Source of the DNA: a bacterium
Lineage (GTDB): Bacteria > SAR324 > NAC60-12
Length of the DNA stretch: 64,000 bases
Assembly: GCA_965205865.1 (NCBI GenBank)
Contig: CBDBHR010000028.1
Coordinates: 1-64,000, forward strand
Direction: 5' to 3'
Positions 30,020 through 59,520 of the stretch are shown in pieces; the first letter of the stretch is position 1; each line of letters starts with the position of its first letter. Below the pieces are notes generated by a model, which saw only the letters and a list, made by a program, of their open reading frames with translations, had not been told where the DNA came from and made no database searches. A program made the translations under genes and the position numbers.

Positions 30020-30990
30020 GTGCGCCAGGAAAGCTGGCAAGAAATAGAGAGTGAAAGTCTCTTACTCGGTAAGGCAGTAACGACCCGCCGAGTCCCCGAG
30101 TCATGAGTGGTTATTCGCAAGGATAGGCGCTAAGCGTTGACAGGGGAGAACATAGGCTCGGTATTGAGCTCCGAAATCATAGTTTCAGGCGCTGACCTTG
30201 TGGTCTGGTGGGGAAGGCAATATCAACCGAAGGCGTTAGCGTGAGTCTCGGCTGAGCCTGGAGGAGTCAAAGACCCGGTGCATGTGTGGAAGTTTCTTGA
30301 TCGGAACCTGGGAGATCCTGAAGACGACTGTCAACATTCTATTGGTAGTCGGATCGGGAAAATTAATAAATAACCCCGATATCTACGTCTTCAGGAAGTC
30401 GGACAAGTTCGTAGTAGCGATGAAGCGGCGAACAATGTGCGCTTAGCAGGATCTGCCCGGAAGATCATTTGCAGAGAGTAACAATGCAAAGGAAATCAAC
30501 GGAGCCTGTGGAGCAAAGGGACTTGGCTGAGAGGAATTCTGCTTGTCCTCCTGTGTTCGGAGGACTCAGATGGCCGGTAAAATCAGAGTAACACCTCTAA
30601 AAGCAAAGGTTCGGCTCTCGGTAAATGGCGGGTTCAAGCAGGGTGCGCCAAACGGCAACGTTTGAGCGTCTGACTCGAAGCAGGAGCCGGATGCGTTAGC
30701 AGCGTCCGGATCTGAAGCGGCGTGAGATCCAGAGAGTAACAATGCAAAGGAAATCAACGGAGCCTGTGGAGCAAAGGGACTTGGCTGAGAGGAATTCTGC
30801 TTGTCCTCCTGTGTTCGGAACTCAGAGGCCGGTAAAATCAGAAAGCGGTAAGCAGGGTGCGCCAAACGGCAACGTTTGAGCGTCTGACTCGAAGCAGGAG
30901 CCGATGCGTTAGCAGCGCACGTCCGGATCTGTACCGGAGGAATGACGAAAGGTGGCTGGAAACCACTATAAGTCAGTTCTTTACGGTGAC
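30020..30990 (+). mobile_element. ORF-less group II intron, copy 1, with an internal duplication of the DIII-DV region
   Basis: 5' GTGCG; DV-like GAGCC(G)GATGCGTTAGCAGCGCACGTCCGGATC; 3' end ..GGTGAC; first ~415 nt nearly identical to 58772 onward; no reverse transcriptase ORF. Confidence 0.85.
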
Positions 30991-31060
30991 TTTGATTATT
31001 TGATTTGGAACGAGTCTAGTTTTTTTGCTCCCTTTTCATTTAATCAAAGGCCTGACCCCC
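30991..31060. repeat. 3' part of the palindromic GGTCAGGC..GCCTGACCCC repeat (intron 3' exon)
   Basis: TTTGATTA-loop-TAATCAAAGGCCTGACCCCC. Confidence 0.75.
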
Positions 31061-31384
31061 TTCGACCCCTTCGCAGTACTTTATCTCCAGTTATCCGTCT
31101 GCGAACTGGAACGCTGAGAGCATCATCAATCGTGTTTTAATACATTGGGATACTGAAACCGGTACTTTTGGAACAAAAGATCATCATTTTTCTGAGGATA
31201 AAGTGCGCTACAAATCCATACAAGGAGCAAAATCCCATGTCATCATGCTCAATTCGGTATGCAACTTGTTTTGGGCTCCGGCTTTTGAAAATTACTGGAA
31301 CAACATGCCTATCTCCTATCGTATGCAGTTTCTCAAAGATCACCCAGAATATAATCCGTTTCAAATAAATAACACTGATTAACT

Positions 31385-32077
31385 CGAATGACGGCATTGT
31401 AGATCAAATACATGATCGCCCGACGCCAGGGCGAGACATTGTTGGCCGAACCGTGCAGGACATTACAATGGATGAAACAAACCGATCCGGCCGCTCCAAT
31501 CAATTCCTCAATACCGTTTTCGGAAGCCATCCGTTCCATGGTGGCGCGATCCACGGTCATCAGGTCATATCCCTTTCCCCTGGCATCCGCGTGTAGCGTT
31601 GCCTCCATGAGGCCGTGGCCGTGTGAGCCCGACACCAACAGGAGAGGCAACTTGGCCGCTGTGCAGTCGTCGATAAACACCGATGCCATGATACAGCGCG
31701 GCTCCGCCATGCAGTCGATGGCGCGAAACGGAGGGTAATCCTGGTGCCAATTCCAGGAAGAGCCGCTGCCGAAACCCGGTTTGGGGTTTAAGCGGCTCTG
31801 ATGCAGGTAGACGTCGTCCTGAAACAACTGGCGCACCGGATTCAACAGCCGCGGCAGCAGTGAGAGACGGCGATATGGTTCGGGAAAAAAATGGGCTCCA
31901 AAGACCAGCCGAGCAGCAGCAGAGTCGTCTTTTTCGCGCACCACCTCGGTCCCTGGCGACTCAGAATTTCCGCCATCGGTTTTGCAGATAGGCCACCTCA
32001 TCTCCATCCAGCAGGCCCGGAAAAAACAAGAAGCCACGTTCTTCGAATTGTTCGATTTGCTCGTCGCTGAGTTGCAT
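31385..32077 (-). pseudogene. PhyH/ectoine-hydroxylase-like 2OG-Fe(II) dioxygenase, frameshifted and truncated
   Basis: MQLSDEQIEQFEERGFL, then another frame gives WNWHQD..HCNVLHGSANN..R. Confidence 0.8.
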
Positions 32078-32116
32078 GGTATGCGATCCTTTGTTTGAGA
32101 TTAAACTGAGAGTGCA

Positions 32117-32570
32117 TTAATCGATGAAACTAAAACCGACAGCCCGAGCGTGATAATACAAACCACCATCCTGGACAACCAAGCTTGTCATTCGTTTGTC
32201 ACCATGATTGTGATGGGAATGCACAGCCCTTGGTGGTGTCACCATGACTGTGTTTGGCTGCCAATCAATGCGCTCGCCATCAATCATAGAATGACAATCT
32301 TTACTTTGAAGACACAGGGTTAATGCCACGGCGTTATGGACATGCGGTCGTTGAGAGTTTCCACCTGGCAGGGAATTGATCGCTGAGGTCGAGATCAATC
32401 AGACCGCTTGGGGTGGATTTCGAAAATGCTTTGTCACGTTCGTTGACAAACAGGTGCGTTGGTACTGGCGAACGTTTCGTTTTGAATACGTTTTCCAGAA
32501 TTTCATAGATCGCACGGTGTGTATATTTAGTTTCTGCTCGCTCTATTGAATGGGGAGTGGTCTCTAACAT
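32117..32570 (-). pseudogene. cupin-domain protein remnant
   Basis: QRPHVHNAVAL..VTPPRAVHSHHN; N-terminus in another frame. Confidence 0.7.
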
Positions 32571-32648
32571 AAAGCTCTCCTGCCTCAGGATAAATTAAAA
32601 CGTTTAGCTTAGGTGATTCTTATTTGCAAGCATAATCTGCCCCTTTTT

Positions 32649-33704
32649 CTAAACCCTGCTCACCGTGCTAACGATCTTTCCCGTATGTGCCGCTTCGACA
32701 ATCGCTTCGGTAACCCTCAAATTCTGCAACCCATCTCGCACACCGACGAAAGGCTGTACCTCACCTCGGATAACAGCACAGAAGTGATCGAGCTGTCGCT
32801 CCAAAGGATCAGCACGTTTCACTTCGATGTTGCTAGTTTTAAAAGGTTTCCACCAAGATCGATCCTCGGTTTTCTCATAGATTTTGAGGCGCATTGTCGG
32901 AATCGCGAGTGAGCCATGGGTTCCAGCGATGAGATAACAGTCTTCGTCAGGATAGGTTGAATAACTCTCGTTCTCTTGCGAAGTCTGCTCCCAACTCCTT
33001 GCTGCGCCAACCGTGTCGGACAGAAGGAATGTGCCGAGCACACCGTTTTCGAAGCGCAGATTGATCGCCACGGTGTCTTCAACAGGGAAGCCCCGAGTGG
33101 CATTGGAGGAGAACGCCTGCACTGCGACGATCTCCCCACACAACATACGCAGGTTGTGTATTTCATGGATCATGTTAATCAGGATTGGGCCTCCCCCTAA
33201 CTGGCGACGCCACGAGGCGGCATTATAGTAATCATCAGGCTTAAAAAACAATGCGCTCCCCATAACTGCCACGAGCTGACCGAGTTTGCCATGGTCTATA
33301 ATTAGTTTAGAGCATGTCATGATCGAACTGTATGCCCGATGATGGCCGATAAGGATTTTAGCCTTGGCCGCATCCGCTATTTCACACAACTGCTCACCCT
33401 CCTCGAGTGTTTGCGTAATCGGCTTTTCGAGCAGCATCGGCACTCCGGCATCGATGCATTTTAGGGCATGTTCGAGGTGTATCTGATTCGGTGTGGCGAG
33501 AATCATACCATCCGGACAATCCTTCTCGAATAGTTCGTCAAGCGTCTCGAAGAGGGCTACTCCGGTTTTCGATGCGGTTTGCCTAACACTCGGAGAAGGG
33601 TCGATAATGGCGGCCAGTTTACATGCCGAACTGGCTTGAATGCACTCGATATGGCGTCGTCCGATCAACCCTGCGCCAGCGACAGCAATCCTGATTTTGT
33701 TCAT
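32649..33704 (-). CDS. Gfo/Idh/MocA-family oxidoreductase
   Basis: IAVAGAGLIG, LLEKPI, GGGPILINMIHEI. Confidence 0.92.
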   Translation of the reverse strand: MNKIRIAVAGAGLIGRRHIECIQASSACKLAAIIDPSPSVRQTASKTGVALFETLDELFEKDCPDGMILATPNQIHLEHALKCIDAGVPMLLEKPITQTLEEGEQLCEIADAAKAKILIGHHRAYSSIMTCSKLIIDHGKLGQLVAVMGSALFFKPDDYYNAASWRRQLGGGPILINMIHEIHNLRMLCGEIVAVQAFSSNATRGFPVEDTVAINLRFENGVLGTFLLSDTVGAARSWEQTSQENESYSTYPDEDCYLIAGTHGSLAIPTMRLKIYEKTEDRSWWKPFKTSNIEVKRADPLERQLDHFCAVIRGEVQPFVGVRDGLQNLRVTEAIVEAAHTGKIVSTVSRV

Positions 33705-33947
33705 GTGGGAATTTCCTTGCGAACAAATTAGTATTTAGAAAAAGTGCAAGATACCACTATACTGAGGGACTTTAAAGTCTTTATATTTTGTTTATTTTTA
33801 TAATTATTTACAATTGAATTTTAAATTTGTTAAATTGGGCGCCAACGGGCGATCTTCGTATTCCAACACGGCCACCGAAAGGTTGTTTGGTTCCGTGTCC
33901 TCCGGTAAGCAACTTTTCAGGGCATAGGGTCTCCTTATAACTGATGT

Positions 33948-34102
33948 TATACTGTGAACGGATTATTTCTGGATTCATTTTTTGTCATCCTGAGGGAACC
34001 GAAGAATCTTCTTGATTCCCATGAGATTCTTGCTTAGGCAGCCCCCTTAGCTCGGAATGACAGTTCTTTTGAAAAGTGAAATTTAAACCCGTTTAGAGTA
34101 TA
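33948..34102. repeat. MITE-like element: TATACT...AGTATA ends around an inverted TGTCAT-type palindrome pair
   Basis: TATACTGTGAACGGATT versus AACCCGTTTAGAGTATA; inside, TGTCATCCTGAG..GAATCT and AGATTC..CTCGGAATGACA. Confidence 0.65.
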
Positions 34103-34211
34103 TGTGAATAGATTTTGCAAGAAGTTAATATTTCCTCCAATGGATTATCCAGGGACAAAGGCCGACATGGAACGGGCAATTGAGGTTTGACCCCTTTTCA
34201 TTTTCAAATGT

Positions 34212-34651
34212 TTCGAAGCCTTCAAAGAAGATGTCAGCAAGCCAGTGATTGTGGTAACGATGTATGCTGATACCTTCCGGCGCCAGTTTCTTGATACGGC
34301 AGGCAAACCGGTTCATCATGCCGGAAAATTGATCTTGAAAGTACCCAAAACGACCTTTGAGCGCTTGCAATTGGACCAACTATTTGCCACCTGCCAGCAT
34401 GCATTGGCGCCAATCTGATCAACGGGTTTCGCTTCAACTAAAAAACAAAAACATTAAAGTTTAAGGGGATGAGTGCGTCCATGACATGAGAAATGAAGAC
34501 TTTCCACATCTGAAAACAGCATTTTGATGCTCATTCTCACTCCAACTTCCATGGATTTGATGATCAAAATCTGATTTCAGAACGATTGCATTTCTCAAGC
34601 AAAAAAATCATCTTGAAAATCTGATCCTTTTTCAGAATCGCTCAATTTAGG
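34212..34651 (+). mobile_element. second right-end fragment of the IS1380-family element at 26123-27019
   Basis: About 440 nt nearly identical to 26580-27019, ending GCTCAATTTAGG. Confidence 0.85.
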
Positions 34652-34686
34652 TTGTAATAAGGTCTATCTTAGTCCCGGGGGGAGGC

Positions 34687-35740
34687 CTATCGTTTCCTTG
34701 GACTGATCGAGTGATTCCTCATTTTCTTCGCCATCGATGGGGATGTAGCGCACTCCCCCGCATGATTTACGATGGAGTGGTCAGTTTCAACGCGAAACTT
34801 TTTTCCATGGTGGGTGACGATCTGATTCATGATTTGGCCATACGTTTTTCCGGAGGTTCGCTCCCACGGGGGAATAGGCCCCCGAGGATCTTCAAAATTC
34901 CAGACTTCATCGATTTTGAGCAGTTGACGGAACCGCTCCCCATTGCGAGCCAGATTTTCTTCCGAAATCCGGCTGGGGGGTAATGCTCTTGCGTGCGGCA
35001 GTAGAAGGCACTGTAATAAGCGGTGACCCACAATCGAAAACCTGGATTGATCCGAGGAAAGGCTCCGTGCAAGAGGGTGCCTATGAAAACAATGACCGAA
35101 CCCGCGGGTGCTTCGACAGCGATGGCCTGATCCACCTCCTCACCCGGCTTGGGGTGGCGGCGGAGTTTATGGGATCCCGGGACGATCGCCAGGGCGCCAT
35201 TGTCTTTGGTATAATCGATCAGACACCAGTTTGTATTGAACACCATTGGGGGATCGGGAAGCGGTTCAAAAGGATAGAGGTGGGTATCGGCATGTAAGCC
35301 CATTGTGTGCCCATAGCCCACCGGGTCCTGCCATTTGACAATCCCGTTGAACGCGGAAAGCAGGCAACCGGAACCCAGGTAGTAATCTATCAAGGGCAGA
35401 GTCAGAGGATGCTGGATGATTTCCTCAATAATCGGATCCTTTTCCATAAACCCGAAGTACCAATTTTGGGTTTGGTTGGTGCCATGTTGTCGGTGAAACC
35501 ATGTTCCCCGGTCTCTTCATCGGGCCGCACCCCAGTGATTTCTTCCCCAACCCGTAAGAGCGCTTCTTTGGTTTGCTCTAACAGGCGAGTGTCGCCCATT
35601 TGCTCAGGGGTGATCACGGTGAATCCCTGCTCTTCAATCTCATCCAGATTTTTAGTAAGGCCACGCTCTTCGATCTGCTGAGAGGCCATTTTCTTCCAAT
35701 TCTCCCAAGTGCGCCATTCTGACCATTTTTTGGTAATCAT
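34687..35740 (-). pseudogene. PhyH-family dioxygenase split over three frames
   Basis: EEQGFTVI; GLHADT..NGALAIVPGSHK..LLHGAFPR; C-terminal part in a third frame. Confidence 0.8.
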
Positions 35741-35874
35741 ATAACTCCTTACTTATTTCTCTATTTAAGTACTTATGCAAAAGAAAAATTCACATTTTTA
35801 CCACTCATAATCGTTCCACTCCATAATCACGCAAGGCTATCCATAATGAAAGACATTTTTCGGACAAGCGCTAA

Positions 35875-36750
35875 TTATTCCTTGATAGCGCCTGCCGTGA
35901 GCCCCTGGACAAACTTCCGCTGGAAAATTACATACACCACGATAATTGGCGGCATGACGATGATCGCGCCGGCCATTTCCAGCGAGTAAGCTCTACTGTA
36001 GGCGTCTCGGAAGAACATCATGCCCACCATGATGGGCCTTAGGCTGCCTCTCTGCATGTAAACCAGGGGCAGCAGAAATGCGTTCCATGCTGCCATAAAG
36101 TTAAAAACCACCATGGCGGAAATGGCCGGCCCAGACAGCGGCAACATGACCCGCCAAAAGACACCAAATTCGTTACACCCATCGATCTTCGCTGCATCGG
36201 CCAATTCGTAAGGTAGCCCGGTGAAAAACGCACGCATAAAGAATATGCTAAACGGCAACCACAGTGCGATCTGAGGCAGAATCATCGCCCAATAGGTACC
36301 TAGCAAGTGGATGTCTTTCAAGAAGTGGAAGAGCGGGATCATGATCGATGTAAACGGTACCATCAGCCCTATCAGGATGAAGTAAAAGACAAAATTGGCG
36401 CCCGGCAGTTTGAGACGGGCCAAGGCGCAGCCGGCCAGGCTGGCAAGACACACCGTACCCAGGACAATTGGAACGGACACGATTACACTGATGAGAAAGT
36501 ATCTGCCGAATCGACCTTGTTCCCACACCTTCGAGACATTCTCCCAATGCAGAGTGGTTGGTGGTGCTAGAGGGTTCCTTGAGATTTCTCTTTCCGTCTT
36601 GAAAGCGGTGGAAACCACAAAGTAAAATGGTGCTAAGCTGATCAGCGCATAGAGGAGTAGAACCCGGTACTTAAAACCTCTACTCAGCCAATAACGCCTT
36701 GATCGCCTCGGCGTCAACTGCCTCACCGTATCGGTAGTTGCGATCTCCAT
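35875..36750 (-). CDS. carbohydrate ABC transporter permease (MalG-like)
   Basis: LPYELADAAKIDG EAA loop; QRKFVQGLTAGAIK. Confidence 0.92.
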   Translation of the reverse strand: MEIATTDTVRQLTPRRSRRYWLSRGFKYRVLLLYALISLAPFYFVVSTAFKTEREISRNPLAPPTTLHWENVSKVWEQGRFGRYFLISVIVSVPIVLGTVCLASLAGCALARLKLPGANFVFYFILIGLMVPFTSIMIPLFHFLKDIHLLGTYWAMILPQIALWLPFSIFFMRAFFTGLPYELADAAKIDGCNEFGVFWRVMLPLSGPAISAMVVFNFMAAWNAFLLPLVYMQRGSLRPIMVGMMFFRDAYSRAYSLEMAGAIIVMPPIIVVYVIFQRKFVQGLTAGAIKE

Positions 36751-36754
36751 CTCG

Positions 36755-37637
36755 CTACTCCCCCCTCTCTCGTACGCGGATAAATATGTAAGATGTAACC
36801 AGCGCCAGGCTGGTCAAAACCATCGACACCGCTGCACTATAGCCAATGTCACTCTCCCTGAAAGCTATCTTGTAGATATAGGTGGCGATCACCTGTGATG
36901 CCGTGCCGGGGCCGCCACTGTTCATGATCCAAATGAGGTCGAAAACCTGGAAGCCACCGATGAGCGTGAAAGTGATCAGCATAGTCAGCACGTGCCGCAG
37001 CTCAGCAATGATGATGTAGATGAACCTTTGCCAGGCATTGGCCCCGTCAATCAAAGCGGCCTCGATCAGCTCTGGGTTAATATTCTGCAAACCGGCCAAG
37101 ATGATGACAAAACAGAAGCCAACATGGGTGCAGACAGCAGCCACGATTATGGACGGCAGAGCCCAAGTCGGATCCGCCAACCAGGCTCTCGCCAGAAAGT
37201 CAAGACCGATGCCCTTCAGCACCTTGTTGACAACCCCGTACAGTGGGTTATACATCCAGCTCCAAATGATCCCGACCACGACCTGGGATAGAACTACCGG
37301 CAAGAAATAGATGGTCCGAAAGACCACCCTGCCCCGCACCCCACTCCATACGAGAACCGCCAGCACGAGTCCGATTAAAATAGGCGTTATCGAGCCCAGG
37401 ATGATCCAAATCAGGTTGTGGTACTGTGCCTCCCATAGCAGCGGGTCGACTATTAGGGCGCGATAGTTCGCCAACCCGACAAACTCTTTTACGGGCTTTG
37501 CCCCATTCCAACTGGTGAGGCTGTAGTAGAACGAGGTGCACAAGGGATACGATGAAGAAAACGTATACGATAAGCGCTGGTATGATAAAAGCGTAGCCTG
37601 TAGCGACGACTCGCACCGACCTGCTAAGGGTAACCAT
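36755..37637 (-). pseudogene. carbohydrate ABC transporter permease (MalF-like) with a frameshift near 37545
   Basis: GYAFIIPALIVYVFFIV is in a different frame from FVGLANY..ELIEAALIDGA. Confidence 0.8.
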
Positions 37638-37754
37638 GCGTGCTCCGCCCATCACCCCACCGGCTTGAACAACCTCTTTCCTCGAGATTTCCTGACTCAT
37701 TGAACTATCACTTGATGTGAACCTGAATTCGACAAATAGTTTTGGCCTGTCATT

Positions 37755-37863
37755 CAAAGGCGATTTCGTTGAGAACTATCAAAAAAGAAAAAGAAAGACT
37801 AACAGAAATTCTAAAAAATCTTCAGCCAAAGGCGATTTCGTTGAGAACTATCAAAAAAGAAAA
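37755..37863 (+). repeat. 37-bp direct repeat x2 with a 72-bp period
   Basis: CAAAGGCGATTTCGTTGAGAACTATCAAAAAAGAAAA at 37755 and 37827. Confidence 0.85.
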
Positions 37864-38005
37864 CGACAGACAGATCTTCGATGCGGAGTGTCGCTTCCGC
37901 GGACGTGGTCCGGCATCCAGGGCGCATCAGCGTACTGGCCCAGGGAAATTTACGAGAGAATTTTTTTGATATTTTGGCAGGTTTCTTGAGGGGAGGGGCG
38001 AGTTA

Positions 38006-38359
38006 TTATAGAGATCTTGGTTCAAATAAAAGTTTGATTCCATCCAGAATCTCTTGAAATTTCTTTTCGGAAACTTTTCCAATTTTTTCTCCTAAATCTG
38101 ATTTGTTGATCGTATAGATTCGTAAAATATTGACGACACTTTTCTTTTGTAAATTGGCCTCGCCTTTGGGCAAGAGCACATTCCCAGGTGCGCTCGCTCG
38201 TTTCAAATTCGAAGTGAGAGAACAGACGACAACCGTATTTAATTTACTGACATTGAAAAGATTATTTTGAACTACAATATACGGATGCCGATGGGCTGGT
38301 TCTGACCCTCTTGGCTCTGCCAAATCTATCCAATAGATTTCTCCTTGCTTGATTACCAT
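38006..38359 (-). CDS. mazF: PemK/MazF-family toxin
   Basis: QGEIYWIDL..GSEPAHRHPYIVVQNN..LTSN. Confidence 0.9.
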   Translation of the reverse strand: MVIKQGEIYWIDLAEPRGSEPAHRHPYIVVQNNLFNVSKLNTVVVCSLTSNLKRASAPGNVLLPKGEANLQKKSVVNILRIYTINKSDLGEKIGKVSEKKFQEILDGIKLLFEPRSL

Positions 38360-38610
38360 TTTATTTCCTTCATACTCGATTTTTGTTTTAGAATCATTTG
38401 CTTGTGTTTGATATTTTCTTCTTCATCCGGAAAATCACTATAGGCCGTATTGAGTTGTTCTAAGAGCATTTGATTTTCTTTACTCTTCATATAATCTTCG
38501 ATCGCTAAGGCAAAAAGTCGGCTCCTTGAAACATGGAGTTCTTCAGCGAAATGATTCACCTTTTCATAAAGGTTTTGATCCAGCGAAATAGCCGTTTTTA
38601 CTGTTGGCAT
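38353..38610 (-). CDS. ribbon-helix-helix antitoxin (MazF partner)
   Basis: VKTAISL..VSRSRLF; overlaps mazF. Confidence 0.85.
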   Translation of the reverse strand: MPTVKTAISLDQNLYEKVNHFAEELHVSRSRLFALAIEDYMKSKENQMLLEQLNTAYSDFPDEEENIKHKQMILKQKSSMKEIKW

Positions 38611-38799
38611 TGGAATCTCCTTGAAATAAGTATTGATAATATTATTACTGAAAATTATACTAAATAATCATACTTATGCAATACTTTTGTGAGTTTTCTG
38701 GAGGAATGCAAGACCGTGAAACAGGAGCTGAGGGTCGTTGATGACGAACACTGAGGTCGGGACTCCATTTCCCTTCAATTTGGAGGGGGCAAAGCTCTA

Positions 38800-38921
38800 G
38801 GCTTTCTAATCGTATAGCTAACCCATTGATTGTCTCTAAAGCTATCCCTGAAAAAGCCGCTCAAGATTCCCTTCATATTGCAATTGCCTGTCTACATGGT
38901 ATTGATTATTTATTAACTTGA
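38800..38921 (+). pseudogene. PIN-domain toxin fragment
   Basis: Hand translation AIPEKAAQDSLHIAIACLHGIDYLLT*. Confidence 0.6.
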
Positions 38922-38990
38922 TTTAAATCATCGGATTTAATAAAGATGATAGCGCTAATATTTTTAAAAGCAGCCTTTTGATTCTCCTAA

Positions 38991-40181: not shown

Positions 40182-40246
40182 CCAGAGGTCCGTTTTGAAT
40201 TTCACACTGGCTGTTCTGCCAAATTCAAAACGTTTTTAAGTATCAT

Positions 40247-41105: not shown

Positions 41106-41106
41106 A

Positions 41107-41361: not shown

Positions 41362-41366
41362 TGGAT

Positions 41367-49496: not shown

Positions 49497-49537
49497 AATG
49501 TTATATACCAATAGAGGCTGAAGCGCTCGTTTCTCAT

Positions 49538-50973: not shown

Positions 50974-51130
50974 GAAGCGCATCACCTAGAAAATCCATCT
51001 GATTGTGGCTAAAACGTGAACTTCAGGCCCACTCACTCTATGTGCGCCCTCAGCCACCAGATATTTTCACGGTAACATCAGTTTCTAATTGCAAATCATT
51101 GCGCACATTTACTTTTGATCAGGGAAATCC

Positions 51131-51709
51131 ATGAGCGACGAAAAACACGAAGACAGTTTGGAAATGATGAGCTTGACGGCCAAAGTTCTCAAATCCCGCA
51201 CGATTATCATTTCAGATCAAGTCAACAACGAATTGGCGAAAAAAGTACTCAATCAACTGCTGTTGCTGGAGCAGGAAGATCCGCAGAAAGAGATCACCGT
51301 CTTCATCAATTGCCCCGGTGGCGAGGTTTTTTCAGGTTTTGCTATTTATGACGCCTTGCAATTCATCCAATGCGAGGTCACGACGATTGTTGCCGGATTT
51401 GCCGCCAGCATGGGCTCGATTCTCAGTCTGGCTGCCACCAAAAGCCGTCGTTTCGCCTTTCCCCGTTCCAAAATCATGATCCACCAACCGCTTTTAACCG
51501 GCTATCAAGGGCGGGCCACGGATCTTGAAATCCAGGCCAATGAAATCCTCAAAACCCGGGATTTCATCATCGATATCTACTGCCAGGCCACCGGCAAAAC
51601 CTATCAAGAAATCAAGATGGCTATCGACCGCGACAATTGGTTCACTGCAGAAGAAGCCTTGGCGTTCGGTCTGATCGACCGCGTGATTTCCTCCCGCAAC
51701 GAGATGTGA
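51131..51709 (+). CDS. clpP: ATP-dependent Clp protease proteolytic subunit
   Basis: INCPGG, AASMGS, IMIHQP, DRDNWF. Confidence 0.94.
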   Translation: MSDEKHEDSLEMMSLTAKVLKSRTIIISDQVNNELAKKVLNQLLLLEQEDPQKEITVFINCPGGEVFSGFAIYDALQFIQCEVTTIVAGFAASMGSILSLAATKSRRFAFPRSKIMIHQPLLTGYQGRATDLEIQANEILKTRDFIIDIYCQATGKTYQEIKMAIDRDNWFTAEEALAFGLIDRVISSRNEM

Positions 51710-52171
51710 GCCGCCACCTGTTGCGCGATCTTCTCCGGAATCGGAGGAGTTGGAGCGAGCCGCTCTTAAGTTCGTCGGTGCTGCCGGCGAGACGAGGCGG
51801 ATCTCGAGCAGAACGCGCTTGTCGATGCGTCCGCTGAGACGTGACACCAGATTAATGAGGCGCATCTGCCAACCGTACTTCTCACGCAGGACTGCGTAGG
51901 CGCGTTTTTCGACGTCGCCGTCCTCAACGATGAATGCCTCCGCGTCAAGCCAAGCGCCGCGCAGGTCTCCGCGACTGCCACAAGCCGCGACGCGGGCGCG
52001 CGGCGAGTTGCGAAGACGCTTGACCTTTCCCGCCCCGGCCTCGGAAAATACGTAGTATCGACCGTCCAACGCCGCGAACCAGACCGCCGTTTCGATCGCC
52101 CTCCCGCTCTTTCGGAAGGTCGCCAGATTGACGTATTTCTCGCCTGTGAGTGGATCCATGGGCGTGGGCAT
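51494..52171 (-). CDS. PPOX-class F420-dependent oxidoreductase with a C-terminal extension antisense to clpP
   Basis: YVNLATFRKSG..AVWF..KVKRLRNSPR..KYG; the domain ends near 51790; visibly GC-richer than its neighbours. Confidence 0.8.
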   Translation of the reverse strand: MPTPMDPLTGEKYVNLATFRKSGRAIETAVWFAALDGRYYVFSEAGAGKVKRLRNSPRARVAACGSRGDLRGAWLDAEAFIVEDGDVEKRAYAVLREKYGWQMRLINLVSRLSGRIDKRVLLEIRLVSPAAPTNLRAARSNSSDSGEDRATGGGSHLVAGGNHAVDQTERQGFFCSEPIVAVDSHLDFLIGFAGGLAVDIDDEIPGFEDFIGLDFKIRGPPLIAG

Positions 52172-52464
52172 TCTAATCCCTCGGAGCGCGTTGTAGCAGG
52201 AAAAAATGATTGCGAATCGGGACCAAATTAATCTCCCCATAAGGGACAATCAAAAATTTACTGAGGACGGTAACATCTGAAAATAGAGGTGTAAAGACAA
52301 AGTTACGGGGAATATTTCTATTTTTTGGCAGGTTTCTCGAAGGGATAAACGGCCTATTCAATTTTTCGCAGTTTTTCTTCCATCCTGCTTTAAAAAACTT
52401 GACTTCGAGTGAGGGGCAGGCGTGGAAATTTGGAATTTTAAACAAAAATTCGGACCTGAAGGGA

Positions 52465-52768
52465 TTCGAGAAAATCTTGGAGGTTCCGGGATTGCTTGTT
52501 CTGAAAGGGGGTCAAGTCTTTCTTTGCTTCGCTTTCCGAGGCATCTTGGCAAATTGAAAAAGATTAAAATTTACATTTTTGCAAACTTGCAAGCCTGACC
52601 CCATTTCGAGAAAATCTTGGAGGTTCCGGGATTGCTTGTTCTGAAAGGGGGTCAAGTCTTTCTTTGCTTCGCTTTCCGAGACATCTTGGCAAATTGAAAA
52701 AGATTAAAATTTACATTTTTGCAAACTTGCAAGCCTGACCCCATTTTTTGCAAGCCTGACCCCATTTT
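52465..52768 (+). repeat. 140-bp tandem duplication (x2) plus an extra TGCAAGCCTGACCCCA copy
   Basis: Units start at 52465 and 52605, with one mismatch noticed; each carries GGGGGTCAAGTC...TGCAAGCCTGACCCC. Confidence 0.9.
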
Positions 52769-52872
52769 CGCGTTTATTATGATATCAATTATGAGCAAGG
52801 CAGGGTTGAAGTTCAGGCGATTGGCATCAAAATTCGAGATAAAATATCCATTGCCGGAGAAGAGATCCCACT

Positions 52873-53145
52873 ATGAAATTCGCATCCTTAGCAGAAGTTA
52901 AAAACCAACTCAGTGCCTTTATTAAACAATGTGAAGAGGGAGAAACCGTGATCATTACCAAAAATGGGAAACCTGCGGTCGCTCTTGTTAACATTGAAGA
53001 TGAAGCGGATTTAGAAAGTCTCCTGTTAGCCAAATCCAATCAGTTTCAACAGATCATTGAAGAATCCCGAAAGAGTTTTCAGCGAGAGGAAGGCATACCT
53101 CATGAGCAATTTTGGGAAGAGATGAAAGAGAAGGAAGACTTATAG
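52873..53145 (+). CDS. Phd/YefM-family antitoxin (no toxin adjacent)
   Basis: SLAEVKNQLS..ETVIITKNGKPAVALV. Confidence 0.9.
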   Translation: MKFASLAEVKNQLSAFIKQCEEGETVIITKNGKPAVALVNIEDEADLESLLLAKSNQFQQIIEESRKSFQREEGIPHEQFWEEMKEKEDL

Positions 53146-53230
53146 CATTGGCTGAATTTGATGCGGAGAACAGGATGCGCGGACTTTTTACAAAAATCCG
53201 GGTAATATCGCAACGAGTTGTTTTAATCCC

Positions 53231-54244
53231 TCAAATCAGGGGCAGCCGGTCCGTTGGATTTTTTTGCAGAATTTCCTGATCATGGAAATAACGGATGGTG
53301 GTGTTGGCCGAGGAATGCCGGGCATAGGCCTGTACTTTCTGCAGGGGCTCCCCCAATTCCAGAGCCAGGGTGATGGCGGTGTGGCGCATGGTATGGGCCG
53401 AGATATCCAGTCCCACCGCTTTTCCGAGGCGGAAGACGACGTCATTGACCCCTTTACCGGTCATTTTTTGTCCGAAGGTACGAAAGCCCAGAGAAATGAA
53501 GACCCATGCGCCCTCCAGGTTTTTTTCGCGCAAGGTATCCCGCCACTCCTGCAATTCGGCAAACAGTTCATTACGGATTTTCAAACGCTGGGGAACCCCG
53601 CTTTTGGTGTTGTGGAGTAACGCCACATGAAATTTCCCATCCTGGCGGAGGTCTTCCCAACGCAATTCCGCCACCTCTCCTCGCCGCGCTGCCGTGAGAT
53701 AAAGAAATCGCAAGAGCAAGGCATTGCGCTGACGCATCAACTCTGCCACTCGGGGATCATACGTCTCATTGGCATTGGCTGTCATCATGGCATTCAATTG
53801 AGTAATCAGTAACGCCCCCTTCGTGCTGACGTCCGAGACCTTTTCATTACGAATGATGGTGGATTTGAATGGATTGGCAGGAAGGTAGCCAAATTCCGTG
53901 AGCACCTTGAAAACCTTGCGTAACGCGCTCATAGACTGGTTGATGCTTGCCGGTTTTTTCCCCTGAGCCTTGAGAAAGGATTTGTACTCGAGGATAGTGA
54001 GACTGGTCAGTGTTTGCAGTTTCCCGCCACGGTATCGTTTGGACGATCGAGTGGGAACTCTCACCCCCTGAAGGGAAGCCCATTTTTGAAAATCGGCAAA
54101 AATCCGCGTGTATGCCCGCCGGGTATTGGGTTTGTAATCCTCGAACAGCAGCATCAATGCCTGGGAAGGAGTGAACTCTCCTCGCTTTTCCCATGAAACC
54201 GGTACATCCTCGATGGTGTTGCTGATTTTTTCCACAATCTTCAT
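53231..54244 (-). CDS. tyrosine recombinase/integrase
   Basis: TAARRGE (R), TKSG (K), HTMRH, ARH..TTIRY; N-terminal NTRRAY SAM-like domain; start at 54244 inferred. Confidence 0.92.
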   Translation of the reverse strand: MKIVEKISNTIEDVPVSWEKRGEFTPSQALMLLFEDYKPNTRRAYTRIFADFQKWASLQGVRVPTRSSKRYRGGKLQTLTSLTILEYKSFLKAQGKKPASINQSMSALRKVFKVLTEFGYLPANPFKSTIIRNEKVSDVSTKGALLITQLNAMMTANANETYDPRVAELMRQRNALLLRFLYLTAARRGEVAELRWEDLRQDGKFHVALLHNTKSGVPQRLKIRNELFAELQEWRDTLREKNLEGAWVFISLGFRTFGQKMTGKGVNDVVFRLGKAVGLDISAHTMRHTAITLALELGEPLQKVQAYARHSSANTTIRYFHDQEILQKNPTDRLPLI

Positions 54245-54314
54245 AATTACGGAGCTGTCTGTTTCGTCAACCCATTGAATCGGGGGATATCCACTGTGAC
54301 CACCGGCAGCGCTT

Positions 54315-54914
54315 CTAGAATACTTCCATTGCGCTGAAGTAGCCTTCGATACGAGATCCGGATTTACCACTTCGCCAGTTGCCTGCGAAACCATTGGTGC
54401 TGATCTCACCTACTTCCAGCACGGCGTAGGCGCCGTCGTAACGCCGGAGGTCACGCTGGTTTGCGATCGAGCCGAGTCTCAAAAGAATGCTTCGTTCACC
54501 GGCGTAGTTTCCCTCGAGCACGAGCGCGCCGGGAGCCTGCGGGTCTTGACTGGCGAGACTGCCGACGCGGTATGCGCCAACCGCTTTGATATCGACGTCC
54601 GTGAATCCATACAAAGGCGTTGACGCGCTGCCCGGCGATTCGAGTCCTTGCGGCTGCTTCCGCAGCGTGAGCTTACCCCGCACGGAGCGACTATCATTGC
54701 CATTTACGACCTCCACGAGCGTCAACTGGTAATTACCACTTCTACCCACCAGGGTCTCATCCGCACTAAGGCGCCCGGAAGTAGCCATGCAAGAATCCTT
54801 CCCTATCCGCGCCATCTCGGGACCATCTTGCGCAGTGGGTTTACCGGAGGTCCAGCATCCTACCAGCATAGTGAGGGCCATCGTCGTCAGGAATGCGTTC
54901 TTATACAAAACCAT
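54315..54914 (-). CDS. hypothetical lipoprotein
   Basis: Signal peptide with lipobox LVGC. Confidence 0.65.
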   Translation of the reverse strand: MVLYKNAFLTTMALTMLVGCWTSGKPTAQDGPEMARIGKDSCMATSGRLSADETLVGRSGNYQLTLVEVVNGNDSRSVRGKLTLRKQPQGLESPGSASTPLYGFTDVDIKAVGAYRVGSLASQDPQAPGALVLEGNYAGERSILLRLGSIANQRDLRRYDGAYAVLEVGEISTNGFAGNWRSGKSGSRIEGYFSAMEVF

Positions 54915-55266
54915 ACTCTTCTGAATCTGAATCCCGGACTATTTTCTGATCTGGAATATCGCTTGTAATGATTGACTCCCATCTCCGAGCCGCCTGCCGG
55001 AACAACTCTTTTTGGTCTTCCGTGACGTCGCCGACAAAAATGAGATCGATATCGAAGGTAAGGTTATCCGGGCCGTTCTCACTGTTATCCGGGTTGTTCC
55101 CACCGTTATCCGGGTCGTTCCCATCGTCTCCACCGCCTCCACCACACCCGGCAAGAGTAATCAGGCAGATAAGGAACGCGAATACCTGCAACCGGAGCAG
55201 GCAAAATGCGTCCGTGAAATTTACCAGGATTTTCTGCGATATGACGATTTTGAGCGGACTTTTCAT
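54901..55266 (-). pseudogene. truncated lipoprotein, possibly the N-terminus of a leishmanolysin-like metallopeptidase
   Basis: LAGC-GGGGG, three PDN repeats, FDIDLIF..FRQAARRWESIITSDIPD, then ends without HExxH. Confidence 0.5.
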
Positions 55267-55278
55267 ATTTCAGAGCCG

Positions 55279-56478
55279 TTATTGGTGTTTTCTGCGTTGG
55301 GGGTCATTGAATTGATGATGAACTTCGCTGAGGAACTGGGGGATGGGAAGTTCCTCCGGACAACGGGGCAGGCAGTCGCCACATTCCGTGCAGGCATCGG
55401 CAAAACGGCCGGAAAACCAAGGTCCGACCGGATTCAACATATTGTAGCGATAGCGGACGAATTGCCGCATGTCATAAGCTTTCCACATGTTACGAAAGCG
55501 CAGCACCTCCGGGATGTCGATCGATTCGGGACAAGGCAGGCATTTCTGGCAGAGAGTGCAGTACTCGCGACCCTGCTGTCGGAAGGCTTCAGCTGCCTGG
55601 TCCACGCGGGATTTGATGCGGGCAAACCAGGATTCCGGCGCGGCATCATCCTTGATTTCCGCAGCAATGGAGGCAAGATGAACGTCGACGTGTTCCTGCT
55701 TTTCGGCCCCCAAACTGAGGGTATGGATTTGCGGGTGAGAAAGGCAGAAGCGGTCGTTGAAATTCATGGCTGAGAGGGGATGAGTCAACTTCAACAATTT
55801 TTGAGGAGGTTGAAACAATTGTCCTCCTTTGTCGTTGGGAGAAATGATGAACACTCCCATGTCTCGGGCAGCCGCTTCCTCGATGGCGGGTAAGTTGTGC
55901 TGGAAAAAATAGTAATAGTGAAGATTGATGGACTCGAAAACACCGCTGCGGATTGTTTTCAAGATGATGGGTAACTTGCCATGCGTGCTGAAACCCAAGT
56001 GCCGGATTAGTCCTTCCTCGATGGCATCCTGCACTGCCTGCAGACATCCCCCCTTTCGAAAAATGCACTCTAAATCTTCCTCCTGGTTGACCCCGTGAAA
56101 ATCAAAATTGTCGATCACCTCCAACTGCAGTCGCTCCAGGGAATCCTCGATGCATTCACGCATTTTTTTATAGCTGGGCATAGGCCTGATTTTCGTAGTG
56201 AAGAGGAGACGGCGGCGCAACTGCATTTTGGTTTCAGCAGGTTTGCCGAGTCGAGGCCAGATTTTGCCATAGATTCGTTCGCTGCGCCCATAATCCCGGG
56301 CTGTCTCAAAATGATGAATCCCCCTTTCCAGGGCATACCGGCTCACTTCCAAAGCATGCTGCAGCGTGTCGTCAGGGAGCAGGTCATGGGGACCTTCCCA
56401 TCCATGGATATAACGCATGCCTCCCAACGTGAAGACCGGAAGTCGTAATTCAGTTTTTCCAAAACGCCGGTAGAGCAT
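55279..56478 (-). CDS. aldo/keto reductase with a C-terminal 4Fe-4S dicluster
   Basis: YRRFGKT, HFETARDYG, LGFSTHG, CTLCQKCLPCP and CTECGDCLPRCP. Confidence 0.92.
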   Translation of the reverse strand: MLYRRFGKTELRLPVFTLGGMRYIHGWEGPHDLLPDDTLQHALEVSRYALERGIHHFETARDYGRSERIYGKIWPRLGKPAETKMQLRRRLLFTTKIRPMPSYKKMRECIEDSLERLQLEVIDNFDFHGVNQEEDLECIFRKGGCLQAVQDAIEEGLIRHLGFSTHGKLPIILKTIRSGVFESINLHYYYFFQHNLPAIEEAAARDMGVFIISPNDKGGQLFQPPQKLLKLTHPLSAMNFNDRFCLSHPQIHTLSLGAEKQEHVDVHLASIAAEIKDDAAPESWFARIKSRVDQAAEAFRQQGREYCTLCQKCLPCPESIDIPEVLRFRNMWKAYDMRQFVRYRYNMLNPVGPWFSGRFADACTECGDCLPRCPEELPIPQFLSEVHHQFNDPQRRKHQ

Positions 56479-56627
56479 CTGTTTTCTCCTTCTTTGGCAA
56501 TTGAGTTTTCTCAAAAAAAGGGTATACTCGGGATTTACATTCGATTTGTTCTCCCTGCCACCATTATTTTTCCTGATGGATAGAAAGAATTCGATTCCTT
56601 GTCAATCTCTTTTTAACAAACCGATCC

Positions 56628-57599
56628 ATGTTTGAGCCACTCGAGTTAATGAATTTACGTTTTAAAAATAGTATTCTTTTCCCACCTGCTTCAGAAAATC
56701 AAGCCAATGTCAACGGTAAAGTCAATATGTCGATGATCCGGCATTATCGTGAGCAAGCCTTCCATGGAATGGGAACCATCATTCTGGAGTCCGCCTACGT
56801 GAACAAGCAGGGACGTAGTCATGTCTCTCAGTTGGGGATTTCAGAAGAAGAGCATATCCAAGGTCTGGCAAAATTGATCCGGGTCCTCAAGCAGCAAGGG
56901 GTCGTCGTCGGAATCAGACTGGCTCATGCGGGGGCCAAAACCTCCGATGAAATCTGTGGAGAGCAACCGATTGCTCCCTCGGTGATCAACATGGGAAAGG
57001 ATTTCAGTTCGAGCCGGGAATTCGACCGTGCGGATTGTGAGGAACTCAACATGTTTTTCACCCACGCCGCAGAACGGGCTGAAGAAGCAGGGGCGGATTT
57101 TGTCGAAATCAACAGCGCTCAGCAATTTCTCCTGGATCAATGCCTGTCTTTGCGTTTCAATGGACGTGATGACGAATTTGGTCACGAAACGATCGCCTCC
57201 CGTTTGAAATTGAGTTTGGACGTGGTCCGCTCCGTGCGCAGGCGCATTTCCAGGTACATTCCCATCAGCTTCTACTTTTCCATTCATGACAAGCTGGAAG
57301 ATGGCTTGTCCGTCAGGGAACTCAGAACCATGATCAAACTGCTGGAAGAAAGTGGAACCGAAATTTTTCACCCCACTACCCTCCATGCCACCAATAAAAT
57401 TTTTGGTAGCGAAGAAACTTTCATCGAATGGATGGCCAAATATACGAACAAAGCCATTGTTGCCGAGGGAAACATAAAATCTCCCCAAGTGCTCAAGGAA
57501 GTCTACAGTCTTGGCAAGGCCCATTTTTATGCTCTGGACCAGACTATCTTTTCCCGCCCTCAGTGGTATGAATTTCTTACTCGTAAACTGTTGGCTTAA
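56628..57599 (+). CDS. NADH:flavin oxidoreductase (old yellow enzyme)-like protein with a degenerate active site
   Basis: FEPL..FKN, LAHAG, AEEAGADFVEIN, NGRDDEFG..R. Confidence 0.8.
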   Translation: MFEPLELMNLRFKNSILFPPASENQANVNGKVNMSMIRHYREQAFHGMGTIILESAYVNKQGRSHVSQLGISEEEHIQGLAKLIRVLKQQGVVVGIRLAHAGAKTSDEICGEQPIAPSVINMGKDFSSSREFDRADCEELNMFFTHAAERAEEAGADFVEINSAQQFLLDQCLSLRFNGRDDEFGHETIASRLKLSLDVVRSVRRRISRYIPISFYFSIHDKLEDGLSVRELRTMIKLLEESGTEIFHPTTLHATNKIFGSEETFIEWMAKYTNKAIVAEGNIKSPQVLKEVYSLGKAHFYALDQTIFSRPQWYEFLTRKLLA

Positions 57600-57689
57600 T
57601 TGCGCGACGGACCCCATCTCAATGTCTCTAACCCGAGTGCGAGATAGCGCACTCGATGATTTGAAGCGGCGTTGTCTCTTTCATTCTAT

Positions 57690-57860
57690 TGAAGGTTGGT
57701 TTTTCCGGTTGCCAGTATAAGCAATTGAGCCTGCGAGTGAATCAGCCATAAAGTTTTTGACACTGCGATGTCCGGAATGCTCAATTCGTGATATATTTTT
57801 CAGTTGGTTGTTGATGGTTTCAATAATGAAGCGTTTTCTCAGAAGGTGTTTGGCAAATAA
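57690..57860 (-). pseudogene. IS982-family transposase C-terminal fragment
   Basis: Hand translation LRKRFIIETINNQLKNISRIEHSGHRSVKNF. Confidence 0.7.
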
Positions 57861-57889
57861 ATTGCATGTCTAGTTCCATTATTTAGGAG

Positions 57890-58020
57890 GAGATGGATGT
57901 ATCCATGCGATTCAAGCGATCAGGAATGGTCTGAGTGTGAAAACCCATACGCTTCCAAAGAGCGGGGCATTGATGGGGGGGAAAAAATCAAAGGGCGTAA
58001 ACGCCATTTCAGTGTCGGTA
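57890..58020 (+). pseudogene. IS5-family transposase fragment
   Basis: RGIDG/GKKIKGRKRH motif. Confidence 0.55.
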
Positions 58021-58420
58021 CTTTATTGATCGTATGGGAACCCTCACAACCACTGCTGAAAATATAATTCGTATTGCCATGATCAAAGTCACCTCAGCAA
58101 AGTGTCTTATTCAACCAAACGGGTTCTTGAGAAGGCTCCCTTCATCTATGAGGCGGCATCAGGTCATTGTTTTAAACTCCACCTCTGAGAGGTTTGCAGG
58201 CCAGCGGGCGGTGCCTTTATAACACCCGCAGTTTCATACATATTGACCTTTTGGATGGGGGACTGCACCAGCGGTCCTCCATCTACTTCCTTTCTGAATT
58301 TTCAAGATCATTGAATAATGCGCAATTTTTCTGTATAAGTCATGTTACGCGTATATTTTTTGCATTCAGCGGTTTCCATGAATACGCTTCCCCACAAGTG
58401 TGTCATTACTGTCCCCACAA

Positions 58421-58640
58421 GTGTGTCATTCCTGGCCAAGACCAGGAATCCAGGAGTCGCCATAGTGTGTCATTCCTGGCCAAGACCAGGAATCCAGGAG
58501 TCGCCATAGTGTGTCATTCCTGGCCAAGACCAGGAATCCAGGAGTCGCCATAGTGTGTCATTCCTGGCCAAGACCAGGAATCCAGGAGTCGCCATAGTGT
58601 GTCATTCCTGGCCAAGACCAGGAATCCAGGAGTCGCCATC
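58421..58640 (+). repeat. five tandem 44-bp palindromic units
   Basis: GTGTGTCATTCCTGGCCAAGACCAGGAATCCAGGAGTCGCCATA at 58421, 58465, 58509, 58553 and 58597. Confidence 0.95.
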
Positions 58641-58752
58641 ATGAAAACCTACAACGTTTATATCTTGGCAAGTAAAAGAAATGGCACTCTATATTTTGAG
58701 TGACAAATGATCTTCTTAAAAGAGTTTATGAACATAAAACAATCTCGTAGAG
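58641..58752 (+). pseudogene. GIY-YIG nuclease 5' fragment
   Basis: MKTYNVYILASKRNGTLY, then after a frameshift VTNDLLKRVYEHK. Confidence 0.8.
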
Positions 58753-58771
58753 CCAATATTGAGGTCAGGCT

Positions 58772-59354
58772 GTGCGCCAGGAAAGCTGGCAAGAAATAGA
58801 GAGTGAAAGTCTCTTACTCGGTAAGGCAGTAACGACCCGCCGAGTCCCCGAGTCATGAGTGGTTATTCGCAAGGATAGGCGCTAAGCGTTGACAGGGGAG
58901 AACATAGGCTCGGTATTGAGCTCCGAAATCATAGTTTCAGGCGCTGACCTTGTGGTCTGGTGGGGAAAGCAATATCAACCGAAGGCCTTAGCGTGAGTCT
59001 CGGCTGAGCCTGGCGGAGTCAAAGACCCGGTGCATGTGTGGAAGTTTCTTGATCGGAACCTGGGAGATCCTGAAGACGACTGTCAACATTCTATTGGTAG
59101 TCGGATCGGGAAAATTAATAAATAACCCCGATATCTACGTCTTCAGGAAGTCGGACAAGTTCGTAGTAGCGATGAAGCGGCGAACAATGAGATCATTTGC
59201 AGAGAGCGGTTTAAGCAGAGTGCGCCAAACGGCAACGTTTGAGCGTCTGACTCGAAGCAGGAGCCGGATGCGTTAGCAGCGCACGTCCGGATCTGTACTG
59301 GAGGAATGACGAAAGGTGGCTGGAAACCACTATAAGTCAGTTCTTTACGGTGAC
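58772..59354 (+). mobile_element. ORF-less group II intron, copy 2 (583 nt), lacking the DIII-like segment
   Basis: 5' GTGCG, DV GAGCCGGATGCGTTAGCAGCGCACGTCCGGATC, 3' GGTGAC; splits the left arm of a palindromic repeat (58761-58771 and 59355-59424). Confidence 0.88.
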
Positions 59355-59520
59355 TTTGATTAAATGAAAAGGGGGCAAAAAAACTGGACTCATTCCTAAT
59401 CAAATAATCAAAGGCCTGACCCCCTTTGAAGGATCATTTTTGAGGAAGCAAAAAACCGGTGGGACGGCAAACACACACGCCGTCCCATGGGGTTTAGGAG
59501 ATTCCTGGAGAAAGGCGAGA

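Follow-up and report, generated by a model that had tools for sequence, protein, structure and literature searches.

We analyzed a 64,000-nucleotide (nt) stretch of bacterial DNA, hereafter the window (positions 1 to 64000 of contig C28 in genome G000, an assembly of 4.74 Mb in 30 contigs), which contains two group II introns that lack an open reading frame (ORF). These introns, referred to here as copy 1 and copy 2 (Table 1), are very probably degenerate members of one proliferating family that homes, via exon-binding site 1 (EBS1), to the motif CAGGCY in the terminal inverted repeat (TIR) tips of Y1-transposase elements. In the mechanism we propose, the intron RNA would recognize DNA mainly by pairing of its six-base EBS1 loop, GGUCUG, with CAGGCY, and the intron would insert directly after this motif, nearly always before a T. 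CAGGCY forms the inner end of a tip, GGGGTCAGGCY, shared by the TIRs and their miniature derivatives, including an 80-bp dimer. With the tip in both inverted repeats, each TIR element offers one target per strand, which would explain why copies 1 and 2 lie in opposite arms. Retrohoming would spread the ORF-less copies, with the reverse transcriptase supplied by intact copies. This enzyme seems to have no endonuclease domain, so integration would be expected to depend on single-stranded DNA and on nascent strands at replication forks, a route demonstrated for RmInt1.

Two group II introns in the window

Both elements are group II introns. RF02005 (group-II-D1D4-6), a class-specific model of domain I with a gathering score of 49, matched copy 1 at 30054-30276 (159.6 bits) and copy 2 at 58806-59028 (165.7 bits). 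The general domain V and VI model RF00029 gave matches under its gathering score of 40, at 30896-30990 in copy 1 (18.8 bits, E 0.81) and 59259-59354 in copy 2 (29 bits, E 0.002). Each intron starts with GTGCG (at 30020 and 58772), which matches the GUGYG boundary, and ends with ...ACGGTGAC (GTGAC, at 30990 and 59354), in agreement with the AY boundary. At empty sites, both flanks join exactly at the intron boundaries. The boundaries and the ORF-less state given in a first-pass annotation of the window were therefore correct, as was its observation that both introns follow CAGGCT.

The same annotation had noted that removal of copy 2 restores a hairpin. Excising this copy in silico joins GAGGTCAGGCT to TTTGATTA...TAATCAAAGGCCTGACCCC, and the arms are complementary at 17 of 19 positions. 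The right arm is identical beside both copies, and the copy 1 spacer is the reverse complement of the copy 2 spacer.

Copies 1 and 2 are singletons, that is, one-off derivatives of a 692-nt ORF-less form rather than the proliferating form itself. Copy 1 contains an internal duplication of approximately 250 nt in the D4/D5 region (roughly 30472-30720 and 30730-30937), and copy 2 has undergone a further deletion of full-length positions 436-537, which took out the beginning of what remains of the ORF. The folding energy of domain V is -7.6 kcal/mol (z -0.08) in copy 1 versus -14.0 kcal/mol (z -2.41) in copy 2 (ViennaRNA). We infer that both copies were altered after insertion, and they are probably no longer mobile.

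Insertion sites across the genome

Searching the whole genome with blastn, we detected 41 intron 5' ends and 37 intron 3' ends. We compared 40 of the 5' flanks, leaving aside one further copy that lies head to tail behind another intron. The copies do not have unrelated flanks: the 5' flank is exactly CAGGCY in 35 of 40 cases and carries the whole 11-mer GGGGTCAGGCY in 23 of 40, and exon positions -16 to -13 are A-rich. On the other side of the intron, 26 of 31 flanks start with T. At least eight types of 3' flank occur after the insertion point, including TTTGATTA, TGCAAGTT, TGCATA, TGAAAGTT, TCGTTA, TGTGAC, and CYTTTG, and the insertion point is constant to the base across these types and across both arms of the dimer.

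The tip GGGGTCAGGC (GGGGTCAGGCY) is present at 145 sites in the genome compared to approximately 7 expected from base composition. The first-pass proposal of an exon-binding site tuned to an abundant family of inverted repeats is supported. Within the window, GGTCAGGCY occurs six times (0.75 expected), a count reached in 0 of 100 shuffles. The tip constitutes the outer end of the inverted repeats bounding three kinds of element: genes for proteins of 328 to 335 amino acids with Y1_Tnp (IS200-like), an HVH motif, and a DnaA-C helix-turn-helix; gutted derivatives of approximately 105 to 365 bp that retain the first codons of the Y1-transposase gene; and the 80-bp dimer of two TTTGATTA-type ends, which is the palindrome described in the first-pass annotation. 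An example of the first kind is a 328-amino-acid ORF (locus L005, 196-1182) with a Y1_Tnp match of 46.8 bits, a DnaA_C domain, and the HVH motif, bounded by inverted GGGGTCAGGCC...TTTGATTA ends. The genome contains 15 Y1_Tnp matches, several of them directly downstream of introns.

GGGGTCAG fits GGGGWSAS, the TIR motif of TIRYT genes in the accessible text of PMC3733652. Judging from this 8-base motif and the gene type, the target is likely the TIR tip of TIRtron/TIRYT-type elements. The central first-pass idea, that ORF-less introns home into a family of palindromic repeats, holds, and the identity of this family, earlier labeled as repetitive extragenic palindromic (REP) sequence or miniature inverted-repeat transposable element, can be refined to the TIR tip of Y1-transposase elements. 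The repeats begin RAAANGGGGTCAGGCY and carry no GTAG tag, unlike classical REP/RAYT sequences, which have GTAG or a similar tetranucleotide beside a palindrome of 20 to 40 bp.

In a genome of the same genus (G001), we counted 57 GGGGTCWGGCY sites versus 3 for the reversed control pattern, while four genomes of other genera had 1 to 5 sites versus 3 to 12 for the control, i.e., background. The introns of the same-genus genome follow GGGGTCTGGCT. Three of its intron copies lie within 11 kb (C1:1099466-1109918), all after GGGGTCTGGCT; their EBS1 loop, AGCCUG, fits CAGGCT better, and this genome holds both tip variants.

Three empty targets reported near 52590, 52730, and 52752 of the window are present as minus-strand motifs, but they belong to a TIR subfamily other than that of the 80-bp palindrome (Table 1). 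On the minus strand at 52440-52800, a 140-bp unit consisting of a TIR tip, the first transposase codons, and a degenerate second tip GACTTGACCCC occurs twice in tandem, and an extra half tip lies at 52753-52761.

Occupied and empty repeats

We found 29 full 80-bp dimers in the genome, of which 13 have one arm occupied by an intron or by the 3' remnant of one, 0 have both arms occupied, and 16 are empty. In all 16 empty dimers, the uninterrupted motif runs straight into the 3' flank, so the palindrome cannot belong to the intron 3' end. In intron orientation, 7 of the 13 occupied dimers have the spacer in one direction and 6 have it reversed. Such a split is expected if each strand carries the target once, and it supports one of the two first-pass explanations for the inverted spacer, entry into opposite arms of the palindrome. 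Introns are also present in the upstream TIRs of transposase genes (e.g., C29:734414-732458, C30:425540-423584, C23:179389-178698, and C29:649696-650387). At C29:722000-746000, an array of five near-identical genes for a 335-amino-acid Y1 transposase, together with their TIRs, is interleaved with four introns, one of which is full length.

An alternative is that the introns spread mainly as DNA, either as passengers that the Y1 transposase moves along with TIR elements or through recombination and gene conversion among intron copies, which would spread the ORF deletion, rather than by retrohoming. Some flanks are of the kind this would produce: C28:358767 and C29:409363 have an identical 5' flank and different 3' flanks, C29:726248 and C29:734414 have an identical 3' flank, and the occupied dimers appear enriched for one spacer haplotype (a by-eye reading). 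However, the same-base insertion point recurs in both arms and with at least eight types of 3' flank, sequences beyond the repeat differ between copies, and EBS1 pairs well with the adjacent intron-binding site (IBS1) at 35 of 40 sites, as retrohoming predicts. We therefore consider spread mainly as DNA to be quite unlikely and favor homing to the TIR tip.

The tip bearing GGGGWSAS is presumably recognized by the Y1 transposase. If the intron is specialized on the one sequence that all these elements must keep, the two parasites might be functionally coupled, with the intron acting as a brake on TIR/REP-type elements or riding as their cargo; we regard such coupling as unlikely. If true, the brake would operate by disabling the repeats entered (45% of one dimer family is split), and a cargo role would give the intron a second, DNA-level route of spread.

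Exon recognition by EBS1

The terminal loop of the first domain-Id hairpin, GGUCUG, pairs with the exon CAGGCY at all six positions, wobble included. The G at its 5' end can pair with C or U at exon position -1, accommodating repeat tips that end in GGCC as well as GGCT. We compared the corresponding loop and exon in relatives of the intron (Table 2). Searching with the intron's first 400 bases, nhmmer aligned 11 of 30 relative loci, and more distant relatives were read from Rfam alignments; the count excludes L009, whose exon is off the contig, as well as L037 and the remaining loci. The exon is readable in 12 relatives, and in 10 of these the loop (GU-NNNNNN-R) can pair with exon positions -1 to -6, seven at six of six positions and three at five of six. 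The exon targets of these relatives are mutually unrelated (CAGCCA, CGCUUA, CGCAUA, UUCCUA, GCGUUG, and GUUCGG), and by our own arithmetic the chance of a match of at least five of six at a fixed register is approximately 0.03 per intron. Because 10 of the 12 relatives match at five or more positions, we place EBS1 at GGUCUG in both window copies.

Table 2. Predicted EBS1 loops and adjacent exons of intron relatives
Relative	Loop	Exon	Positions paired
G008	UGGCUG	CAGCCA	6/6
G008	UGGCUG	CAACCA	5/6
G083	UAAGCG	CGCUUA	6/6
G084	UAAGCG	CCCUUA	5/6
G081	UGUGCG	CGCAUA	6/6
G084 (L033)	UAGGAA	UUCCUA	6/6
G083 (L036)	UAACGC	GCGUUG	6/6
G087 (L035)	UAACGC	GUGUUG	6/6
G010	UUGAAC	GUUCGG	6/6
G001 (same genus)	AGCCUG	CUGGCU	5/6

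The first-pass annotation had instead put forward AGCCUG(G), at intron positions 236-242, as its candidate EBS1. This sequence is present and perfectly complementary to CAGGCT, but the Rfam consensus shows its bases as paired: A236 pairs with U204 to close the second Id hairpin, and GCCUGG pairs with UCAGGC at intron 166-171 (30185-30190). We examined covariation in the RF02005 segment of this intron and seven relatives from other genomes. In these eight introns, six of six pairs of the AGCCUGG helix change on both sides, with 93.8% of cells paired, and the helix covaries while exons differ (e.g., GAGGGC/GCCCUC beside the exon CCCUUA). In addition, an A facing exon position -1 would mismatch the 15 of 40 copies that follow C. 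AGCCUG(G) is thus a helix strand, and we give its role as EBS1 almost no credence.

In the same alignment, 89.1% of cells in the domain-Id structure are paired, compared to 30 to 48.5% when partners are slid by one to three columns. Of 31 pairs compared in the eight introns, 17 vary on both sides, and the observed covariation score was reached in 0 of 500 shuffles. We used covariation for domain Id because single-sequence folding did not reproduce the consensus (z 0.09).

The 5' strand of the AGCCUGG helix includes UCAGGCG (intron 166-172; 30185-30191 and 58937-58943), which nearly copies the intron's own target. Relatives differ at this place, and the resemblance is probably a coincidence.

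The intron family and its reverse transcriptase

The 31 copies with paired ends sum to approximately 30.5 kb. Five copies of the family are full length (approximately 1957 nt), and four of these have open frames of 473 to 477 codons that encode a reverse transcriptase/maturase of 470 amino acids; the frame of the fifth (C29:386235) is interrupted, and most other copies are ORF-less. The reverse transcriptase-encoding parent sought by the first-pass annotation is therefore present in the genome, in four intact 1957-nt copies. The 470-amino-acid protein scored 339.8 bits against TIGR04416 (cut-off 300), and the only Pfam match was RVT_1 at residues 117-347. Judging from its length, the protein appears to have no endonuclease domain, because just 36 residues remain after the TIGR04416 match. 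Its relatives include proteins of "Deltaproteobacteria bacterium TL4" (82% identity) and Desulfuromonas versatilis (60%).

An ORF-deletion junction, 571|1836 in full-length numbering, is shared by 13 copies of 689 to 692 nt and by five more derivatives, including both window copies and two twintron-like forms of approximately 1600 nt, so that at least 18 copies, inserted at different sites, have it. Three copies have another junction, 574|1825. Mohr et al. argued that identical breakpoints at many unrelated sites indicate that one deletion derivative proliferated by means of the protein of ORF-containing relatives (in the accessible text of PMC2882425). The shared 571|1836 junction fits mobilization in trans, as the first-pass annotation had suggested for the window introns, although the window copies themselves are damaged singletons and not the form that proliferated.

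Three copies of approximately 1600 nt (C28:326218-327823, C29:628615-627016, and C30:1205902-1207500) carry an insert of approximately 900 nt between full-length positions 396/400 and 397/401, which resembles another intron inserted within the first, as in a twintron. At C26:239009-239711, an intron is followed by a second 5' end at 239712; the two introns lie head to tail, and the 3' end of the first serves as the 5' exon of the second.

We also considered whether the intron is group IIC-like and recognizes a DNA hairpin (a terminator, attC site, or REP stem-loop) rather than a sequence. The targets are palindromic, domain I is short, and the reverse transcriptase, apparently without an endonuclease, found its best relative in the Protein Data Bank (PDB) in a IIC intron enzyme (7uim, E 5e-43, 151 bits). 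However, PDB reverse transcriptases of other intron classes score close behind (129 to 133 bits), so that this search fails to separate the classes. The introns are inserted within the 5' arm, 11 bases in from GGGG, not downstream of the hairpin, and they also occupy TIRs whose partner arm is 0.3 to 1.2 kb away. Furthermore, EBS1 forms six base pairs and its sequence covaries with the exon; in IIC introns, part of EBS1 is missing according to the accessible text of PMC3753933. The shortened EBS1 and hairpin-downstream insertion typical of IIC are thus not found here, and the only shared point is that no EBS2 could be identified. Hairpin recognition of this kind is in our view highly improbable, and sequence recognition through EBS1 is the reading we retain.

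Observations that weigh against the proposed homing mechanism

Several results are at odds with EBS1-guided homing or fall short of what it predicts. Two of the 12 relatives (L015 and L019) showed no match between EBS1 and exon, and the AGCCUG loop of the intron in the same-genus genome has a mismatch with its flank, CUGGCU, at position -5. Among copies of the family, the EBS1 variant A183, carried by 10 of 35, shows no association with T at exon position -1 (7 T and 3 C, where G183 has 15 T and 10 C; p 0.71); likewise, no intron column in positions 1-400 of the 35-copy alignment is associated with C or T at this position. Domain V has a G-A pair at the catalytic-triad G, where G-U is usual. 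The strand bias expected of introns without an endonuclease is only weakly visible: 32 introns are co-oriented and 15 anti-oriented with local GC skew, which is small, noisy, and sign-changing, and the copies are clustered. Neither splicing nor mobility was observed, and retrohoming in trans is our inference from the genome. Among contigs from four public runs, two of them recorded as RNA libraries, none joins 58771 to 59355 and none has the empty site. Contigs of the two RNA libraries contain intron sequence; these contigs are short and broken at repeats, and therefore show neither splicing nor its absence.

EBS2 also could not be placed. In eight sequences, we sought parts of the intron that could pair with exon positions -6 to -16, and none covaried consistently; therefore, the conserved GGGGT upstream of IBS1 may be mere repeat sequence. 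Four candidates were rejected: ACCCC (intron 354-358), which pairs within a domain-II stem that covaries in relatives; ACCUU (176-180), the 5' strand of the EBS1 hairpin stem, just two bases from EBS1; GACCC (63-67), which lies within a stretch conserved across relatives; and UUUC (164-167), which offers only four bases against the A-rich exon positions -16 to -13 and is six bases off IBS1. In group IIE/IIF introns, EBS2 is described in the accessible text of PMC3753933 as dispensable for splicing.

Coordinates and neighboring features

Table 1. Features of the window that relate to the two introns and their targets
Feature	Position	Strand	Remarks
Group II intron, copy 1	30020..30990	+	971 nt, ORF-less; RF02005, RF00029, blastn self-match
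Group II intron, copy 2	58772..59354	+	583 nt, ORF-less; RF02005, RF00029, mapping to full-length copy
IBS1 of copy 1 (CAGGCT)	30014..30019	+	Last six bases of the 5' exon, within degenerate left TIR tip GGGCCAGGCT
Left TIR tip GAGGTCAGGCT before copy 2	58761..58771	+	IBS1 (CAGGCT) at 58766-58771
EBS1 of copy 1 (GGTCTG)	30202..30207	+	Intron 183-188; terminal loop of first domain-Id hairpin; loop in Rfam consensus
EBS1 of copy 2 (GGTCTG)	58954..58959	+	Loop complementary to exon
AGCCTGG, first-pass candidate for EBS1	30255..30261	+	Helix strand; Rfam alignment and covariation
Domain V of copy 1	30898..30929	+	One G fewer in lower helix than copy 2
Domain V of copy 2	59261..59293	+	33 nt, non-GNRA apical loop
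Remainder of 80-bp TIR dimer split by copy 1	30991..31062	.	Spacer and intact right arm; unused target 31049-31057, minus strand
Remainder of 80-bp TIR dimer split by copy 2	59355..59430	.	Unused target 59413-59421, minus strand
Three empty target motifs	52592-52600, 52732-52740, 52753-52761	-	Tips of gutted TGCAAGTTTGC-type TIR elements with first Y1-transposase codons

Immediately beside the TIR remnants near 52.6 kb is a 90-amino-acid ORF (52873-53145, plus strand) that by eye resembles a Phd/YefM-type antitoxin, and next to it is a 392-amino-acid ORF (53231-54409, minus strand) that by eye resembles a tyrosine recombinase/integrase. Elsewhere, the window contains two adjacent tRNA genes, 20850-20922 and 20936-21009 (RF00005, 69.7 and 71.9 bits).

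Comparison with known systems

In class, the family may belong to group IIE/IIF, described in the accessible text of PMC3753933 as having a small IIB-like ribozyme of 450 to 700 nt without the ORF, a domain V apex that is not a tetraloop, and an EBS1 in domain Id that splice-site choice requires. The likeness concerns size and the non-GNRA domain V apex, in line with the first-pass impression of a IIB/class E-like domain V. Domain V of IIE/IIF introns has a five-base loop in place of the GNRA tetraloop, alpha' lies at the tip of an Id3 stem-loop, and EBS1 and EBS2 occupy two loops of Id. The apex in this family, GCG-UUAGCAG-CGC, has a 5-base loop, UAGCA, if only U-G closes, whereas ViennaRNA draws a 3-base loop; it is not GNRA either way. 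The loop of the second Id hairpin (CUUAGCG in copy 2) could pair with CGCUAAG at intron 109-115, part of which Rfam pairs elsewhere.

The proposed system would be a clear natural example of a retroelement that exploits the conserved ends of a DNA transposon family as safe places to land; its six-base pairing rule is readable from sequence. It would link group II introns with the little-studied TIR/REP-type repeats of Y1 transposases, and the well-supported position of EBS1 in RF02005 could aid retargeting of compact introns without an endonuclease.

No new mechanism is involved, since homing into both inverted repeats of an insertion sequence (IS), proliferation of ORF-less copies in trans, and twintrons have all been published. 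The closest parallels for the target are RmInt1 and RmInt2 of Sinorhizobium meliloti, which in the accessible part of PMC5894124 likewise have a reverse transcriptase without an endonuclease domain and targets in IS elements. RmInt1 sits in ISRm2011-2, and RmInt2 uses both of ISRm17's inverted repeats, the left one and the right one, so the lagging-strand template always carries one target (PMC5894124). For proliferation of ORF-less copies, the parallel is TeI3/TeI4 of Thermosynechococcus elongatus, a different lineage and host, in which one family likewise proliferated within a genome and ORF-less derivatives share deletion breakpoints. In the accessible text of PMC2882425, relatives that contain the ORF supply the proteins that mobilize these derivatives, and the T. 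elongatus families also inserted into IS elements and into other introns, forming twintrons. Mobility in trans was demonstrated experimentally for TeI3/TeI4, whereas here it is proposed from sequence; moreover, TeI3/TeI4 split into six groups with different targets, whereas nearly all copies of the present family keep CAGGCY.

With respect to the target alone, the system resembles TIRtrons/TIRYT, in which RAYT-like Y1/HUH genes are flanked by long TIRs sharing GGGGWSAS and the TIRs also occur dispersed as singles or dimers; the accessible text of PMC3733652 does not mention introns. In Pseudomonas putida KT2440, a group II intron is likewise associated with palindromic repeats, with 2 of 9 copies at REP elements and no pairing rule stated in the accessible part of PMC1525189, compared to 35 of 40 copies at one motif here. 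Our literature search, which did not reach most subscription journals, returned no other report of group II introns targeting RAYT, TIRYT, or REPIN repeats. Like RmInt1 and RmInt2, the family described here would exploit the ends of mobile DNA elements, but it is known from sequence alone, most of its copies are ORF-less, and its hosts are IS200-like Y1 elements and miniature dimers. What is particular to this case is the host, Y1-transposase TIRs instead of a DDE-type IS, and the breadth of the target, with one short tip opening several TIR subfamilies.

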